Both the position numbers and the translations under genes were made by a program. Under the pieces are notes generated by a model. It saw only the letters and a program-made list of their open reading frames with translations. It was not told the DNA's origin and ran no database searches. A stretch of DNA of 64,000 nucleotides, taken from Candidatus Saccharimonadota bacterium. GTDB taxonomy: Bacteria; Patescibacteriota; Saccharimonadia; Saccharimonadales; Saccharimonadaceae. Below, one piece after another: positions 682 through 49,107 of this stretch (within the stretch, counting starts at the first letter, position 1; every line of letters begins with the position of its first letter). The stretch spans positions 8,678-72,677 of the forward strand of contig JAFWMO010000010.1 of NCBI GenBank assembly GCA_017510705.1, written 5' to 3'.

Positions 682-1279
682 AACCTGATTATATCATAAC
701 TGGTCGTTTCCCCCAAGATTATTTCTGCGAGTTTTTTGATTTTTTATGGAGGAAGGCGGGGGTTATCCGGCTCTTAAAACAATAACTATTGACCGCAACC
801 TGATCCGCCTATTTCCTCTTTTGACCGCTTCACATTAGGTGAAGCATTGTCCTTATTAGCCTTTTTCTTTCGCTCTTGTTTATGTCTTTAGAAGGTGCTA
901 ACGAAAGATTTGCTAATGCGCTCTACGCCATTTAGCGGAGCTCTAGGTAATTCCTATTTGTAATTTATGGCTAGAAATTACCTTTTCGCCCGCTAAATTT
1001 TATGGTTTCCTCTTCATATTGTCCTCTTTTGTTTTTAGTTTTTGTTTTAGTCATCTCGACTACTTTCATATTAGCATAAACAAGATAAAAAATCAATAGA
1101 TTTGTTCAATGTTTTATTGTGTTTTTTACAACAAACAATTTATTTTATATCTGTTTTAACATTTTTTTGTGTTGTTGTCCTTTTTACAACAAGTGTGTAG
1201 TTTTGCGGTATTTTTTGGGGCCTTTTTGGCATGTTTTTCCTGAACAATTTTCTTTCCCCTTGCGTTTTTCTGCTACCTC

Positions 1280-1288
1280 TGATATAAT
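1280..1288 (+). promoter_or_regulatory. extended -10 promoter element (TGATATAAT) for ssrA
   Basis: Exact TGNTATAAT 10 nt upstream of the mature tmRNA 5' end. Confidence 0.6.
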
Positions 1289-1298
1289 AGATACAGTT

Positions 1299-1656
1299 GG
1301 GGCTGACAAAGCTTAGACGGGATATTAACAGCTGTGATGCGTGCCGATTGAATACCGTAAGTATTAAATAAGTGCTAAAAACACTAAGACTGCGCATGTT
1401 GCTTACATGCCAGCATACGCCTAGTTTGATTTTATAGGCTGGTTTCGGCTCAAGGTTCCGTAGGGTCGAAATTATCATACTACGGGAATAGGATTATTTA
1501 GCTGGCGTGAAATAATTAGAAAATTTTGCCACGGCTTTTGTTAGTTTCGTTTTCTGCAGCTAACAATTTCTGCCAAAATGAAACAGAAAACTATGCACGT
1601 AGACTCATAGCCACGTGGTGTTTCGGACCCGGAGGCAGTATCCGGCAGCTCCACCA
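1299..1656 (+). ncRNA. ssrA: tmRNA (SsrA)
   Basis: The 5' GGGGCTGACAAAGCTTAGACGGGAT matches the conserved tmRNA 5' end. The 3' CCGGCAGCTCCACCA matches the conserved 3' end. The acceptor pairing GGGGCTG/CAGCTCC contains a G3:U pair, the Ala identity element. An internal tag frame GCT..TAG runs 1374..1424. Confidence 0.85.
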
Positions 1657-1687
1657 TTATTTTTTTTGACTTTGAAACATAGAAAAA

Positions 1688-1718
1688 GACCGGTAACTGC
1701 GAGGAAAACCGGTCTTTT
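1688..1718 (+). terminator. intrinsic terminator downstream of ssrA
   Basis: GACCGG/CCGGTC stem followed by TTTT. Confidence 0.5.
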
Positions 1719-2013
1719 GTAGAGTGTGGAGTTATTTTGGCTAAATTTTTGTTTTGACCTTCTGAACAATTTTATTGTTCGGAAGCTATCTCTATAATAT
1801 CGCGAAAAAATGCTAATGTCAATATATTTTCTGAACAATTTTTTTACTTTTTTTGTTAGTTTTCCACAAGCATTTTCTGAACAAGTTTGTGCTTTTATTT
1901 TTTTTAAAATGCGTGGGCGATATTTTTGAAAATGAAATTGCTAAAATCTTGCTGCAAAAAGTAGCAAATGAATAGGTGGGGGGTTGTAATTTTGTTTTGA
2001 CTATGCTAAGTAG

Positions 2014-3531
2014 GTGGGCATGATAAGTAAAATACATTCAATAGTACCCTGCGGCTTTGATGGAAGGCTGGTAGAAGTCGAGGGCGATATGAACCGTGGG
2101 CTACCGGCCTTTAATATCGTGGGGATGGCTAATAAGACTGTGAGCGAAGCCAAAGAACGAGTGCGGAGCGCAATGGTAAATTCAGATTTTACATTCCCAG
2201 ACAAAAAAGTAACTATAAATCTGGCCCCAGCAGAGCTCCAAAAGGACGGAACTTACCTGGATTTGCCAATAGCATTAGCAATTTTAGTGCTCTCTGGACA
2301 ACTTTTGGAGAACGACATAAAAGAAAGGATCTTTGTAGGTGAACTGTCGTTAAATGGCGAGCTTAGGCCTATAAAAGGCATTATCAACATCGTAGAAGCT
2401 GCAAAAGAAAACGGCTTTAAAGAGATCTTTGTACCAGAGAAAAATCTGTCGCAGGCGGCATTAATATCCGGCATAACTGTTTACGGCGTAACGACTTTAC
2501 AGGCTCTATATCTACATTTAAAACAACAGCTGGTACTGAAGGTGTCTTCAGGCCAAGAAGCTCCGCAAATGGCCAATACTAAAGAATCTGGGGTATTTTT
2601 AGACCATATACGAGGACAAGAGCTCGCCAAAAGGGCTATTGAGGTGGCAATTGCTGGGCACCATAATATTCTAATCTCTGGGCCGCCAGGGGCCGGCAAA
2701 ACTCTTTTAGCCAAGGCAGCAACCAATCTATTGCCAACCCTCACTCCTGGTGAGATAGTGGATATCACGAAGATTTATTCGCTCGCTGGGCTCGCAACAG
2801 ATGAAATAGTGACAAACCGCCCGTTTCGTAGCCCCCATCATACAGCTAGCGCTACATCTATAATTGGTGGAGGAGCTGGGGCGGCACCTGGAGAAATTTC
2901 ATTAGCACACAAAGGCGTATTATTTCTAGATGAGATTCCAGAGTTTACGCGGTCGGTGCTAGAATCGTTGCGTCAACCTTTAGAAGATAAAGAGATCACT
3001 ATCTCGCGAGCAAACAACAAAACTACTTATCCAGCGGATTTTATGCTGATTGCCACGATGAACCCATGTCCTTGTGGATACCTTGGGGATCCAACCCATG
3101 AGTGTAAATGCACGGAGACGCAGATCCAAAATTATCAGAAGAAGCTATCTGGCCCACTATTTGACCGCATAGATATGTATGTAGAAGCGGAGAAAGTTAG
3201 CAATAAAGAGCTAAGAGTGCCAAACATCAATGGTAGCAATACCCATACTGTTGTAAAAAATAATATAACAGAGGCCATAGCACGCCAAAAGGCCCGCTAT
3301 GGACGTGATGGTGCCTATAATAGTTCCCTTTCTTCATTTCAAGTTTCCCAGCTAATTAAACTAGAACCAGGGGCAGAACAACTGCTTGCTAGTGCCTCTG
3401 AAAAGCTAAACCTATCCGCCCGTTCTTATTTTAAGACCATCAAGGTTGCGCGAACTATCGCCGATCTTGATAAATCGGAAGTTGTCAAGGTAAAGCATCT
3501 TGCTGAAGCATTAACCTACAGAAAACGCTAA
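2014..3531 (+). CDS. comM: YifB/ComM family Mg-chelatase-like AAA+ ATPase
   Basis: Walker A GPPGAGKT, the CPCGYLGDPTHECKC motif and a typical ComM N- and C-terminus. The start is GTG 2014 or ATG 2020. Confidence 0.85.
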   Translation: MGMISKIHSIVPCGFDGRLVEVEGDMNRGLPAFNIVGMANKTVSEAKERVRSAMVNSDFTFPDKKVTINLAPAELQKDGTYLDLPIALAILVLSGQLLENDIKERIFVGELSLNGELRPIKGIINIVEAAKENGFKEIFVPEKNLSQAALISGITVYGVTTLQALYLHLKQQLVLKVSSGQEAPQMANTKESGVFLDHIRGQELAKRAIEVAIAGHHNILISGPPGAGKTLLAKAATNLLPTLTPGEIVDITKIYSLAGLATDEIVTNRPFRSPHHTASATSIIGGGAGAAPGEISLAHKGVLFLDEIPEFTRSVLESLRQPLEDKEITISRANNKTTYPADFMLIATMNPCPCGYLGDPTHECKCTETQIQNYQKKLSGPLFDRIDMYVEAEKVSNKELRVPNINGSNTHTVVKNNITEAIARQKARYGRDGAYNSSLSSFQVSQLIKLEPGAEQLLASASEKLNLSARSYFKTIKVARTIADLDKSEVVKVKHLAEALTYRKR

Positions 3532-31333: not shown

Positions 31334-31588
31334 TTATATCACATAATACAAAACTTCGTTGATGAGTGGAAGGCTCCGACCTTTCCAGACATTGTGAACT
31401 TCACCATTATTACCAATAGCAATAATGGTGGGATATTCTACAATATCGTATGTTTCACAAAAGCTTGGATTTTTATCTGGATCCATGGTCTCTATTTCCC
31501 TGCCGGTTTGACGACGAAAATTTTCAAGCCACTCCGTGACAGAACGTGTATAATCTTGGTTGTCTTTGTAAATACAAATTACTCTCAC
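31334..31588 (-). CDS. thioredoxin-fold-like small protein without CxxC
   Basis: 84 aa. The segment YDIVEYPTIIAIGNNGEV resembles a thioredoxin fold. There is no redox cysteine pair. Confidence 0.4.
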   Translation of the reverse strand: MRVICIYKDNQDYTRSVTEWLENFRRQTGREIETMDPDKNPSFCETYDIVEYPTIIAIGNNGEVHNVWKGRSLPLINEVLYYVI

Positions 31589-32046
31589 GCGAGATTCTTT
31601 CTGGACTTTTGTTCTTTCAAAATATCTTCAAAATCTTCTAAGGTCTTGAACTCACGAAAAACGCTGGCAAAGCGAATATAAGCAACGTCGTTTACTTCGG
31701 AAAGAACACTAAGCACCGCATCACCAATCTGCTGAGATGTAATTTGGTCTTTGCCATTGGCATAAAGAATTTCGGTGGCACGATTTACCACATCCTCCAC
31801 TTCTAGCTCTGAGTTAAAGAATTTGCCGACACTACGACGTACGGCTAGCGCAAGTTTGTCGCGGTCAAACATTTCTTTGTTGCCGCTACGTTTGGTAACT
31901 GTGATGGTTGGAATTTCTACGCGCTCATAAGTAGTGAAGCGATGGCCATCAGTGCCTTCACGGCGGCGACGAATCGTGGTGCCGTCTAGACTTTCGCGGC
32001 TTTCTAGAACCTTGCTATCTCCTATCCTAAAATTTAGTCCTGCCAT
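31585..32046 (-). CDS. nrdR: NrdR-like transcriptional repressor (ATP-cone intact, zinc ribbon lacking all four cysteines)
   Basis: DSKVLESR..IRRRREGTDGHRFTTYERVE, and the ATP-cone motif VAYIRFASVFREF. AGGAGG SD lies 5 nt before ATG 32046. Confidence 0.8.
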   Translation of the reverse strand: MAGLNFRIGDSKVLESRESLDGTTIRRRREGTDGHRFTTYERVEIPTITVTKRSGNKEMFDRDKLALAVRRSVGKFFNSELEVEDVVNRATEILYANGKDQITSQQIGDAVLSVLSEVNDVAYIRFASVFREFKTLEDFEDILKEQKSRKNLA

Positions 32047-32062
32047 CCGCACCTCCTACTTA

Positions 32063-40132: not shown

Positions 40133-40187
40133 TAACTACATTTAGTGTAAAAAAGTATTGACAAGCACTATATATAGGGCTTATAAT
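40133..40187 (+). promoter_or_regulatory. sigma-70 promoter (TTGACA-18-TATAAT) overlapped by two NrdR-box-like 16-mers spaced 32 bp apart
   Basis: -35 at 40158..40163 and -10 at 40182..40187. The boxes are TAACTACATTTAGTGT (40133..40148, 12/16) and GCACTATATATAGGGC (40165..40180, 13/16), scored against the recalled consensus ACACTATATATAGTGT. Confidence 0.6.
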
Positions 40188-40240
40188 CATAAACATAACG
40201 GTAATACTAAACTAACTGGCAAGAGCCAAAGAGGAATAAA

Positions 40241-40681
40241 ATGAAAAAAATTCTTTATCGTAACCCTTATGACGCTGAAAATTTCGACATGAAAAGATAT
40301 TTGAAATCGCTAAACAAATACGCTAAGATTTCCGAAAAAGAAGCCGAGGAGGCATTGGCAGCGTTTGACCAATATGAAACTATGCATGTTTCCTGCTTGA
40401 TTGAAGCCGGTATCAAATTGATTGAAGAAAAGACCGACAAGAAAACTGCAAAGGCATATTTTATGGAGCACGAGGAATATTTTGATGAAGGCAAGTTCGA
40501 GAGGCTTCGTCGCATTACCGGCTATCTAGTAGGTACCTTGGACCGCTGGAATGACGCAAAGAAAGCTGAGGAAAAAGCACGTGTAAAGCACTCTGTGAAT
40601 TCTGCAATTGATGACGCTGCTCGTCTTGCGGCACTAGAAACCCAAGCTATGGAACACAACGTAGCCTACGCAACACGTTAG
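40241..40681 (+). CDS. small protein carrying a class III RNR (NrdD) C-terminal glycyl-radical motif
   Basis: The C-terminus RLRRITGYLVGTLDRWNDAKKAEEKARVKH aligns with my recollection of the E. coli NrdD C-terminus, RRVCGYLGSPDARPFNAGKQEEVKRRVKH. GAGGA SD. Confidence 0.6.
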   Translation: MKKILYRNPYDAENFDMKRYLKSLNKYAKISEKEAEEALAAFDQYETMHVSCLIEAGIKLIEEKTDKKTAKAYFMEHEEYFDEGKFERLRRITGYLVGTLDRWNDAKKAEEKARVKHSVNSAIDDAARLAALETQAMEHNVAYATR

Positions 40682-41655
40682 TTCTCTATCAATTTACAGA
40701 CAAGAGCCGTAAGAAGGCTCTTTTCTGTTGGGTTGGACTCGGCAATTAGGAGCGCAAGGGCGGTAAGAGCGCGGTCGCTGATTTTGGTTTCGCCATTTTC
40801 GGTGAGATGATAGTCGTTGACTGTGAGAAAGACCACAAAAAGTAGAGCGCCGATACGTTTGTTGCCGTCGTAAAACGGGTGATCTTTAATAATGAGATAG
40901 AGGAGATTGGCAGCTTTTTCGGCGATAGATGGATAGACATCTTTGCCATCAAAAGTCTGCGAGATTGCACCAAGACTAGAAGAAAAAGCATCACCACGTG
41001 GTTTGCCAAAAAGCTCGTCGCCTTTTACATTTTTCTTGAGAGACGTAATGATGCTACTGCAGTCAGATTCGGTAAGAAGTTTGATGGAACGCTTCTTGCC
41101 TTTAACGAAGGAGATGTGCCCCTCGTCAAATTCTTGCAAGGCCTTAAAACTTGGGGAGTATTTGGTAATAACTTCTAGGATGCCGCCAGCTTCGTCTGCA
41201 GAAAGATCAGAAGCGGCAACAAGGCGTTTGACAATGCCAAGCGCACCTTCAATTTCGTGAAGCTTCTTTGAATCAAGTTCTTTCAGGCGGCGATCATTGA
41301 TAGCTACGCCATCCACTACGTAATGATGCAAAACTTTGGTGGCCCAGATACGAAAGTCGGTGGCTTTTTTGGAATTAACGCGGTAACCAACAGAGATGAT
41401 GGCGTCGAGATTATACATTTTGACCCGATAAGTCTTTCCGTCTGTGGCAGTATGTGCAAAAAATGCACATACTGAACTTTCGTCCAGCTCACCATCACGA
41501 AAAATGTTACGAATGTGGCGCCCAATTACCGTACGGTCTACACCAAAAAGCGCAGATAGTTGCTCTTGCGTCGCCCAGATAGTTTCTTCATCTATGTCAA
41601 CTTTGAATATAACTTCGCCCTCATGGGCTTTATAGATTTCAACAGCTTTTTCCAT
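40678..41655 (-). CDS. RhuM-family N-terminal domain fused to a Fic/Doc domain
   Basis: The N-terminus IWATQEQLSALFGVDRTVIGRHIRNIF is RhuM-like. The C-terminus HPFYDGNKRIG is a Fic/Doc motif. The start is likely ATG 41655 (GAAAGGG SD). Confidence 0.7.
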   Translation of the reverse strand: MEKAVEIYKAHEGEVIFKVDIDEETIWATQEQLSALFGVDRTVIGRHIRNIFRDGELDESSVCAFFAHTATDGKTYRVKMYNLDAIISVGYRVNSKKATDFRIWATKVLHHYVVDGVAINDRRLKELDSKKLHEIEGALGIVKRLVAASDLSADEAGGILEVITKYSPSFKALQEFDEGHISFVKGKKRSIKLLTESDCSSIITSLKKNVKGDELFGKPRGDAFSSSLGAISQTFDGKDVYPSIAEKAANLLYLIIKDHPFYDGNKRIGALLFVVFLTVNDYHLTENGETKISDRALTALALLIAESNPTEKSLLTALVCKLIEN

Positions 41656-41727
41656 TTTTACCCTTTCAGTATGTGCAGCATACACATACTAATAATAACA
41701 CGGCTTATCCTATTTTGGAACAAGCTG

Positions 41728-46045: not shown

Positions 46046-46459
46046 TTAAAAATATAGTCTTCGGAAACCTTTTTTGACTTTTTGCATGTCATCTTCGGCG
46101 ATTTGCCCTAAACGACTATAAAGTCTAGCTGTACTAAAAGTTCTTGCCTGCGATAGGACTGCGCAAATATCTTTCTCTTGAAATCTAAAACCCACGTACC
46201 AAGCCCCGTCATGTTTTTGCGTTGACAATGGAATGCCTAAGAAACCAAGATGTGTTAGTTTTTTATAAATCAACACTGGTCGTGAAAAATATTTACTTTT
46301 GCCGTTTATTTCTACGCCAACATTTTCGCCTACTGCTACCCACCAAATTTCGCCATCAGTAATCTTTGGTATTTTATTCGTGCTAATATTATGCTTGCGC
46401 TCTTTTACCGGAAACCACATTTCCAAATTTTTATGTTTGTCTTCAAACTCTTTGTCCAT
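46046..46459 (-). CDS. PemK/MazF-like toxin family protein, no adjacent antitoxin ORF
   Basis: GEIWWVAVGENVGVEINGKSKYFSRPVLIYKK and LSQARTFSTARL resemble the MazF/PemK fold pattern. Confidence 0.5.
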   Translation of the reverse strand: MDKEFEDKHKNLEMWFPVKERKHNISTNKIPKITDGEIWWVAVGENVGVEINGKSKYFSRPVLIYKKLTHLGFLGIPLSTQKHDGAWYVGFRFQEKDICAVLSQARTFSTARLYSRLGQIAEDDMQKVKKGFRRLYF

Positions 46460-48306: not shown

Positions 48307-49107
48307 TTAAATAGTCAAGAGATATTCAATCTTGGCGTTGCGACGAGCGTCGTCGTCTGCTTTTGGCAAATCTTCCCTACTGGAATAATCTTCAAAGATT
48401 GGAAGGACGTTTTTGATCTCACCGTCATAAATTGGTGGCTTGTCGTAAACGCTCCAGAGGATAATGCGGAGACTTGGTGCGTTTTTGGCATAAAATTCTA
48501 GAGCTTTGGAAGTGGCACGGATAAACTCCTGCTCGGTTTCTCTAGAATGGCGCCAAGCGCGGCCAGAAAGATATTTTTCGGTGACTACTGGAGAAATCGC
48601 AATCATCAAAATTGTTGCTTCGTAATTCCCTGCTATGAGTAGCTCTAGCAAGATGCCTTCCATTTCTGGATCTAGAAGCGTAACATCTAGGACAATGTCA
48701 TATCCACCTTTGATGAGCTCGGACAAAGTAAGAAATAGCATGATGGTGCTAAACTCGTCTGTCATTTTGCGAAGGTTTTCGTCGCCGTAGTAATCTTTGA
48801 TTTCTTGGTAGTGCGGGTGATATTCCACAAAGCGACGTGCAGCCATTAGAATCGGCTCAAAATTATTTTTTTCACAGTAGGCTTCTACGGCTGGGAGAAT
48901 TTGAGTAGTCTTGCCAGAGCCAGAGAGCCCTGCGATACGGATAAAACGGTGGTTTTTGGTGGCGGCAATCGTAAAATCTTCTACCACCTTTTTGAGAATG
49001 GCTGGATATTCGGCAAGCCCAACTTGCCACTCTGGCTTGACCTCGCTTGGCCAGTGAGCTCGCATATATTCTATAACTTTGACTAACCGTGGATCACTTT
49101 GAGACAT
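48307..49107 (-). CDS. zeta-toxin-like P-loop kinase family protein
   Basis: IAGLSGSGKTT Walker A; size and pattern resemble the zeta toxin / AAA kinase fold. This is weak. Confidence 0.4.
   Translation of the reverse strand: MSQSDPRLVKVIEYMRAHWPSEVKPEWQVGLAEYPAILKKVVEDFTIAATKNHRFIRIAGLSGSGKTTQILPAVEAYCEKNNFEPILMAARRFVEYHPHYQEIKDYYGDENLRKMTDEFSTIMLFLTLSELIKGGYDIVLDVTLLDPEMEGILLELLIAGNYEATILMIAISPVVTEKYLSGRAWRHSRETEQEFIRATSKALEFYAKNAPSLRIILWSVYDKPPIYDGEIKNVLPIFEDYSSREDLPKADDDARRNAKIEYLLTI

Follow-up and report, generated by a model that had tools for sequence, protein, structure and literature searches.

Oxygen destroys glycyl-radical enzymes by backbone cleavage at the radical glycine, and to our knowledge pyruvate formate-lyase is the only one of them with a known repair protein. 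Could a short gene of Saccharibacteria, which live at oxic-anoxic interfaces on other bacteria, encode such a spare part for another of these enzymes, the anaerobic class III ribonucleotide reductase (RNR) NrdD? This question is raised by an open reading frame (ORF) of 146 amino acids (positions 40241–40681, forward strand, ATG start, stop codon included) in the 64-kb stretch of contig JAFWMO010000010.1 analysed here, called the window in the following. The window is from Candidatus Nanosyncoccus, which belongs to group G3 of the Saccharibacteria (TM7) from the ruminant gut. A preliminary description of this DNA had proposed the encoded protein (the mini-protein, encoded by the mini-gene) to be a stand-alone glycyl-radical module of the anaerobic RNR. 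Our analysis leads us to describe it as a candidate autonomous glycyl-radical cofactor for the NrdD of Saccharibacteria, a reading whose chances we regard as evenly balanced.

The existence of a real ORF with a loop of the NrdD type was borne out by matches to profiles and to an NrdD of solved structure. The Pfam family NRDD (PF13597) matches aa 85–117 with its profile positions 532–562 of 562 at 30.0 bits (gathering cut-off 26.2 bits), the NCBIfam NrdD models align their last 35–36 positions to aa 82–118 with 47.4 and 41.4 bits, and residues 707–738 of the 743 residues of the Prevotella copri NrdD (PDB 8p23) align with an E value of 2e-6. The NCBIfam scores (47.4, 41.4 and 30.2 bits) have to be read against cut-offs of 736, 764 and 326 that are set for whole proteins. 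The homology is confined to the last 31–36 positions of the NrdD models, confirming the expected restriction to the terminal NrdD motif. Residues 88–117 read RLRRITGYLVGTLDRWNDAKKAEEKARVKH, which are the letters quoted in the preliminary description, and the C-terminus of the E. coli NrdD that was given there is correct as well. The loop region, as delimited by these matches and by an alignment with the NrdD of Saccharibacteria, comprises aa 85–118 (40493–40594, forward strand) and contains the glycyl-radical motif RxxGY of NrdD as RRITG94Y, with Gly94 (codon 40520–40522, forward strand) being the candidate radical glycine. In an alignment of 27 family members G94, Y95, R88, R91, G98, R102, N104 and D105 are invariant. 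In a 785-aa NrdD from Saccharibacteria (P0383), residues 721–754 are identical to the mini-protein at 29 of 34 positions (85%, E 1e-17). The claim that the ORF ends with this motif did not hold, as 29 further residues (SVNSAIDDAARLAALETQAMEHNVAYATR) come after it, and the motif is therefore not the C-terminus. This C-terminal extension (aa 119–146; 40595–40678, forward strand) is conserved in Nanosyncoccus and is predicted by AlphaFold2 (AF2) to form a helix at residues 125–145, while more distant members of the family keep the GVYTPEEK tail motif of the Saccharibacteria NrdD in its place. Scans against Pfam and NCBIfam at E values up to 10 returned NrdD models alone, plus a chance-level match to glutaredoxin-2, and neither Gly_radical (PF01228) nor any GrcA model was matched.

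According to the preliminary description the first 90 or so residues resemble neither the NrdD barrel nor its Cys4 zinc site. This part of the claim stood, with the single cysteine of the mini-protein (C52) and no CG..CPSCG as in the NrdD of Saccharibacteria, and with a PF13597 match that covers nothing but positions 532–562 of 562, so that the ten-stranded alpha/beta barrel with its catalytic Cys loop is absent. Since barrel and zinc site are both missing the mini-protein is not an NrdD enzyme, and alone it cannot be a reductase. The description has to be amended as the same residues are modelled with a fold that NrdD itself possesses. The N-terminal domain (aa 1–84; 40241–40492, forward strand) gave a compact fold when modelled alone by AF2 (predicted local distance difference test, pLDDT, of 91), and the full-length model from the alignment of 27 sequences likewise shows a confident N-domain, followed by an ill-defined loop and the C-terminal helix. 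When the N-domain was compared with the PDB by Foldseek, almost every one of its top 50 matches was an ATP-cone of NrdB, NrdR, NrdA or NrdD, with template modelling (TM) scores of 0.54–0.67, root-mean-square deviations of 3.2–5.4 Å and probabilities of up to 0.99 at weak E values (0.1–2). They include the cones of the Leeuwenhoekiella NrdB (5olk), of NrdR from E. coli and Streptomyces, of NrdA from E. coli, Pseudomonas and Aquifex and of NrdD from P. copri and S. thermophilus. Searches with the full-length model and in the viral structure library BFVD also point to ATP-cones. At the sequence level hhalign aligned the domain to cones in register with a marginal E value of 0.04 over 17 columns, which became 0.009 over 26 columns with a 120-sequence alignment of the N-domain against a cone alignment, also in register. 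Additionally, the N-domain resembles the cone of the Saccharibacteria NrdD in a similarity that is weak but collinear and includes TAKAY. The Pfam hidden Markov model (HMM) for ATP-cones (PF03477) gave no match at E values up to 10 and a purpose-built cone HMM matched none of 120 N-domains of mini-proteins. We therefore call the domain ATP-cone-like: a four-helix plus beta-hairpin cone fold is confidently modelled, with a sequence proof that is marginal. In the in-register alignment the V-x-K-R of the cone motif VxKRDG corresponds to I-I-Y-x in the family, and canonical binding of ATP or dATP appears doubtful because the Lys-Arg pair is replaced by Tyr-x. With such an N-domain the mini-protein looks like an NrdD from which flap, barrel and zinc site have been left out.

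In order to follow the gene through related genomes we used the best 80 of 369 stretches that encode a relative of the mini-protein, with one genome per GTDB species. These 80 relatives are 74–86% identical and all originate from Candidatus Nanosyncoccus or Saccharibacteria G3 of ruminant guts, Ca. Nanosyncoccus alces (a G3 rumen genome, L003) being one of the carriers. Including the window, all 81 copies are intact with 145–146 codons. Their overall non-synonymous divergence (pN) is 0.129 against a synonymous divergence (pS) of 0.841, corresponding to a pN/pS of about 0.15, and the synonymous sites are saturated (pS 0.81–0.87). The loop shows the lowest pN of the three regions (0.048, pN/pS 0.06), followed by the tail (0.106, pN/pS 0.13) and the N-domain (0.167, pN/pS 0.19), and all three parts of the protein are under strong purifying selection. 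The proposed stand-alone spare part is hence a conserved protein with an NrdD-type loop and not a decayed nrdD, while the rescue role suggested for it stays a proposal. A large protein collection contained 2149 matches to the mini-protein, the best 120 of which are 144–205 aa long (most of them 144–146 aa) and 78–99% identical. Ten of its clusters (of P0005–P0364) that we looked up had no NCBI protein accession and only the JGI source name 'hypothetical protein', and GenBank records of metagenome-assembled genomes seem to contain no annotation of the family. Among 1.84 billion representative proteins 1771 matches were found, the best 150 being almost exclusively short proteins that combine a very conserved motif, FER[IL]RRITGYLVGTxDRWNDAKKAEEKDRVKH, with unrelated N-termini. 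The top match in this representative set, P0121 with 3962 aa, has 59 stretches that align to aa 104–142 of the mini-protein and may be an artefact of low-complexity or coiled-coil repeats.

How the mini-gene is controlled can be read from its upstream region, for which the preliminary description proved accurate. A sigma-70-type promoter on the forward strand (40158–40187) consists of TTGACA (40158–40163), an 18-nt spacer and TATAAT (40182–40187) and matches the consensus at 12 of 12 positions, and the Shine-Dalgarno sequence AGAGGA read at 40230–40235 (forward strand) is located 5 nt before the ATG, with AAAGGAA at the equivalent place in relatives. The two NrdR-like 16-mers that had been noted, 32 bp apart with one of them between the -35 and -10 hexamers, were confirmed. 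Scored against ACACTATATATAGTGT, which is the consensus as given in the preliminary description, box 1 (TAACTACATTTAGTGT, 40133–40148) just 5' of the -35 hexamer matches at 12 of 16 positions and box 2 (GCACTATATATAGGGC, 40165–40180) inside the spacer at 13 of 16. Box 2 is the sole site in the window with three mismatches or fewer, 0.12 such sites being expected by chance. Both boxes are conserved in the relatives: a TTGAC-N16-18-TAnAAT promoter and box 2 occur at 79/79 orthologous loci, and box 1 at each of the 73 whose upstream sequence is long enough to show it. The two boxes start 32 bp apart at 28 of these 73 loci and 33 bp apart at the other 45. Invariant in the boxes are C4, A6, A8, T9, T11 and G13, which we take to be the NrdR core of the Rodionov–Gelfand consensus, and in box 1 also G15. 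When 1.4 Mb of related loci were searched with a strict tandem-box pattern, 79 of the 81 sequences showed it at the mini-gene promoter and a single site matched elsewhere, whereas the frequency of single boxes lets one expect about three strand-wise matches, i.e. one or two sites, by chance; in this related sequence tandem NrdR boxes are essentially confined to the mini-gene promoter. The window also encodes the cognate type of repressor, as nrdR (31585–32052, reverse strand) adjoins ftsZ/ftsA and is recognised by the Pfam models Zn_ribbon_NrdR and ATP-cone and by phmmer against the E. coli NrdR (E 4e-21). Moreover, in nrdDG promoters of Saccharibacteria one box likewise lies in the spacer between TTGACA and TAnAAT, and another one follows 32–33 bp downstream. 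Because they share this operator design, the mini-gene and nrdDG are predicted to be co-regulated as members of one NrdR regulon. With nrdR in the window, conserved tandem boxes and the same design at nrdDG, the predicted control of the mini-gene by NrdR is well supported, and NrdR would be expected to bind to the boxes. The upstream region contains another conserved element, GGTAATACTAA (40200–40210, forward strand; GGTAATRCTTA in relatives), which visual inspection revealed in almost every upstream region, about 12 nt 3' of the -10 hexamer. Relative to box 2 it starts after 35 nt in the window and after 31–32 nt in the one relative that was measured (L008). In the nrdDG promoters this position is occupied by a real NrdR box, and the idea of the element being a third NrdR box in the mini-gene leader was rejected, as it does not fit the NrdR core.

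A cofactor for NrdD needs an NrdD to act on. With E. coli queries, neither nrdD nor nrdG was detected in the window or in the 10-kb flanks of the 80 related loci, nrdR being the only gene of the three there. Using a fragment of loop plus zinc site as query, we found the enzyme of the lineage on contigs of "Candidatus Saccharibacteria bacterium", which encode a 785-aa NrdD with ATP-cone, barrel, a CG..CPSCG zinc site, the loop FERLRRITGYLVGSLERWNDGKKAEEAARVKH and a basic tail, and directly 3' of it a 174-aa radical-SAM NrdG. An example is MBQ2638949.1 on the 554-kb contig JAFQXL010000004.1, and further records are found in JAFRBM01, JAHLBC01, JAFRLA01 and many rumen contigs. A length of 779–801 aa is shared by 118 of the 120 closest Saccharibacteria homologues, and every full-length sequence that we inspected carries its own loop. 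McLean et al. reported nrdD in all mammal-associated groups of Saccharibacteria and nrdG in oral as well as rumen members of G3, and described the anaerobic nrdD for host-associated groups and a B12-dependent RNR for environmental relatives. The two remaining homologues, P0405 (730 aa) and P0425 (727 aa), stop right after the 'FE' of FERLRRITGY, which could be due to a frameshift, to an assembly break at sequence shared with the mini-gene, or to genuine loop-less variants. Proteins of about 105 aa that begin with MKEAGIGYGS were considered as a second mini family and rejected, as they match the C-terminus of the 785-aa NrdD and appear to be fragments; in the one case examined (L163) the NrdD is split by a run of N. 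In L088 (5801–6530) a 103-aa C-terminal fragment of NrdD with half of the zinc site and the loop is found together with nrdG next to genes of cobalamin and heme biosynthesis, on a GC-rich contig with 2x coverage; L088 is probably a chimeric contig and could also represent a truncation of nrdD. Directly 5' of the nrdD promoter lies a gene of 191–195 aa without Pfam match (L164 2164–2739; L249 256–843). It accompanies most of the Saccharibacteria nrdDG loci that were viewed but is absent in L247 and L258–L260, and the NrdR boxes lie between this gene and nrdD.

From these data a model for the cofactor can be proposed. NrdR would repress the mini-gene together with nrdDG, and both would be released when deoxynucleoside triphosphates (dNTPs) are needed. 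The activase NrdG might then install the radical on Gly94, the loop of the mini-protein being nearly identical to the NrdD loop that NrdG normally recognises. If NrdD is cleaved by oxygen at its radical glycine, the loop of the mini-protein could insert into the damaged barrel and restore the activity in trans. The ATP-cone-like domain might serve as a handle for docking or recruitment, for instance if it pairs with the NrdD cone, and would probably not be a canonical nucleotide sensor. Activation, docking and rescue are all steps that we infer, and several observations weigh against them. The mini-protein has no Cys4 zinc site, which may be needed for folding or for recognition by NrdG, and the AF2 confidence in the loop is low (pLDDT below 50 at residues 97–103 and 117–122). 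The preliminary description had drawn an analogy to GrcA/YfiD, which is appropriate for the stand-alone glycyl-radical loop and fails for the N-terminus: the mini-protein has a folded ATP-cone-like domain there whereas the N-half of YfiD is a disordered tail, so the analogy is incomplete. The main weakness is that mini-gene and full-length nrdD were not matched to one assembly, their pairing resting on the data for the lineage and on McLean et al. The homologues on phage contigs described below would also be compatible with a function that came from phages and has nothing to do with repair. Finally, the predicted co-regulation with nrdDG suits a negative regulator as well as a helper.

This last point leads to the alternative that survives best, which we nevertheless consider unlikely: the mini-protein could be a regulator or decoy that competes for NrdG or docks on NrdD via its cone-like domain and thereby tunes, buffers or shuts off the class III RNR, acting as radical sink or anti-activator rather than in repair. 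Its loop is nearly identical to the substrate of NrdG, the fold of its N-domain is that of the inhibitory cone–cone contacts in RNRs and NrdR, and the shared NrdR control would suit a feedback element. However, a pure decoy of the activase needs the recognition motif only, whereas the whole 34-residue loop region is conserved including the part after the glycine (pN 0.048, as given above). A reduced genome of less than 1 Mb would also have to maintain a protein that inhibits its RNR, possibly the only one it has, and the split NrdDs of phages, to which we now turn, would be free loops in productive use.

Five contigs in IMG/VR encode full two-domain homologues of the mini-protein with 44–59% identity. 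The one in L093 sits among terminase, NinG and portal genes, and that in L085 between a marginal tail-tube-like ORF (Pfam below cut-off) and a downstream portal-like gene just below cut-off. Among small loop ORFs in viral loci, 39 of 50 (L090–L153) have no NrdD barrel within 10 kb; such stand-alone ORFs, an example being L087 67–240, comprise 46–139 aa. Among 66 viral loci nrdG was found in the flanks of only L113, L133 and L139. A recurrent viral type has an N-domain of about 55 residues ending in ...GE.xVxYxxxxxxFERIRRITGYLVG. Other phages have split the enzyme itself. In L122 (3740–4048), L126 (800–1036) and L131 (4990–5230) the large NrdD gene stops after the zinc site (...CPxCGRKEFEAVP, then the stop) and the glycyl loop is encoded by a separate gene of 48–65 aa with its own ATG, preceded by a Shine-Dalgarno-like sequence in L126 and L131. 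In L119 (9150–10126), and judged from the ORF layout also in L120, a probable homing-endonuclease ORF lies between the large NrdD and the loop gene. In L098 (884–4621) a 92-aa loop protein is encoded upstream of a loop-less NrdD (1230–3161), which is directly followed by a terminator-like hairpin (identified by eye) and, on the opposite strand, by the gene of a large serine recombinase; an attachment site may be present inside this nrdD at the boundary before the loop. If these split genes are functional, they suggest that a loop of the NrdD type can act in trans.

The same arrangement would be found in Saccharibacteria if the NrdD of genomes with a mini-gene had no loop of its own and the mini-protein, encoded at a distant locus, were its sole radical-bearing and thus obligatory subunit. 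Phages provide the precedent, P0405 and P0425 break off right after the 'FE' of the loop motif, and look-ups did not find mini-gene and full NrdD paired in one genome. Against this stand the 118 of 120 closest homologues of full size with their own loops wherever inspected, the fact that the two short NrdDs are singletons on single contigs that may be frameshifts or assembly breaks, and the 80 loci in none of which nrdD adjoins the mini-gene. Altogether an obligatory subunit seems improbable to us. We give about the same small chance to a phage-derived accessory gene, domesticated or still resident, that serves in conflicts between phage and host, for example by hijacking or blocking the NrdD/NrdG of the host or by superinfection exclusion. 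The two-domain homologues on IMG/VR contigs such as L093 and L085, the 39 viral loci with stand-alone loop ORFs and the Fic/RhuM gene abutting the mini-gene in the window would fit to such an origin. On the other hand, the mini-gene is chromosomal in at least 80 Nanosyncoccus species with a host NrdR operator and housekeeping genes in its flanks (fpg, polA and S20), and no phage genes were noted among the annotated neighbours. The remaining idea, that an nrdD decayed and its 3' end became joined to unrelated sequence, could appeal to the NrdD homology of only about 35 residues. It is effectively excluded by the purifying selection on 81 of 81 intact copies with saturated synonymous sites, the conserved dedicated promoter and operator, the confidently folded N-domain and the absence of NrdD-like sequence within 10 kb in any of the 80 relatives.

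Regarding the neighbourhood, the gene upstream of the mini-gene is a divergent fpg in the window and, as read from the sequences, the 3' end of polA in many relatives, indicating that the neighbourhood has been rearranged. The operator is kept with the mini-gene although the upstream neighbour differs between genomes. Downstream, the mini-gene shares its last 4 nt with a convergent gene of the RhuM/Fic family (40678–41685, reverse strand), which was called as two genes in L157 (10438–11415). A terminator-like hairpin followed by a T-run (40702–40722, forward strand) was found by a consensus scan 3' of the coding sequence and inside the Fic/RhuM gene. Genes for a PemK and a Zeta toxin are located nearby (46046–46459 and 48307–49107). 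The large ORFs of the window encode tRNA synthetases, primase, RelA and others, and Rfam at gathering thresholds detected tRNAs, tmRNA and RNase P only.

As stated in the preliminary description, such a protein does not seem to be known: we found no description of a spare part of the NrdD type, nor of a cone fold fused to a glycyl loop without the barrel, in the literature searched. A review from June 2026 lists spare parts only for formate-lyases, and together with a paper from 2021 it treats the existence of such parts for further glycyl-radical enzymes as undecided. For the anaerobic RNR, which is an essential enzyme, the mini-protein family provides a concrete candidate that can be tested. 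Somewhat short of an even chance, in our estimate, it might be the founding member of a class of autonomous glycyl-radical cofactors of class III RNR and the first spare part outside the formate-lyases, with an architecture taken from NrdD ends, co-regulation by NrdR and an occurrence in Saccharibacteria and phages. The proposed cofactor would then consist of the two ends of NrdD, the cone-like domain and the radical loop, joined to each other, and it would belong beside a broader range of phage-encoded free NrdD loops and split NrdDs that lack annotation. The fusion of cone and loop is also relevant to the communication between the radical domain and ATP-cones of NrdD, and the free loops and split NrdDs of phages suggest that trans-acting radical domains might be a common viral strategy to sustain dNTP synthesis.

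How does the mini-protein compare with known systems? The split NrdDs of phages (L122, L126, L131, L119/L120/L154 and L098) share with it the NrdD-type loop on a separate small polypeptide. In the phages the small gene adjoins a loop-less NrdD, so that its product would be an obligatory subunit, and it encodes about 50 aa or an unrelated N-domain. In contrast, the mini-gene is solitary, with no loop-less or other NrdD within 10 kb in the window and the 80 related loci, it encodes a cone-like domain, and the NrdD of the lineage retains its own loop. ATP-cones are known to move between RNR components, and cones that stand alone or have been transplanted (NrdR, the Leeuwenhoekiella NrdB 5olk and phage 'ATP-cone domain-containing proteins') are the best structural matches of the N-domain and place it in the sphere of RNR regulation; they differ from it as its sequence similarity to cones is marginal (hhalign E 0.009–0.04), the Pfam HMM is silent and nucleotide binding is doubtful. 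With NrdD itself (P. copri 8p23; Saccharibacteria P0383) the mini-protein has in common the loop with 85% identity to P0383, the cone fold and the design of the NrdR operator, and its distant family members also the GVYTPEEK tail motif, whereas the barrel of about 600 residues, the Cys radical loop, the NxN flap, the Cys4 zinc site and, in the cone-like domain, the Lys-Arg of VxKRDG are not present in the mini-protein.

Pyruvate formate-lyase that has been cleaved by oxygen is rescued by autonomous glycyl-radical cofactors, GrcA/YfiD in E. coli and Y06I (vs.6) in phage T4, which are the closest functional parallels. Like the mini-protein they are small stand-alone proteins (127 aa for YfiD and 146 aa for the mini-protein) with a C-terminal part that copies the radical loop of the large glycyl-radical enzyme of the lineage, encoded by a gene separate from that of the enzyme and with phage-borne relatives. 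They differ in their formate-lyase-type loop (PF01228), which is of the NrdD type (PF13597) in the mini-protein, and GrcA/YfiD also in its disordered N-half in place of a folded ATP-cone-like domain. Since it matches neither PF01228 nor GrcA models and its N-half is folded, the mini-protein stands outside the GrcA/YfiD family; it further has the 29-residue helix after the loop and the NrdR control, and for the mini-protein the rescue role is only proposed. If the cofactor hypothesis is right, the mini-protein would work for the anaerobic RNR in the way GrcA/YfiD or T4 Y06I work for pyruvate formate-lyase.

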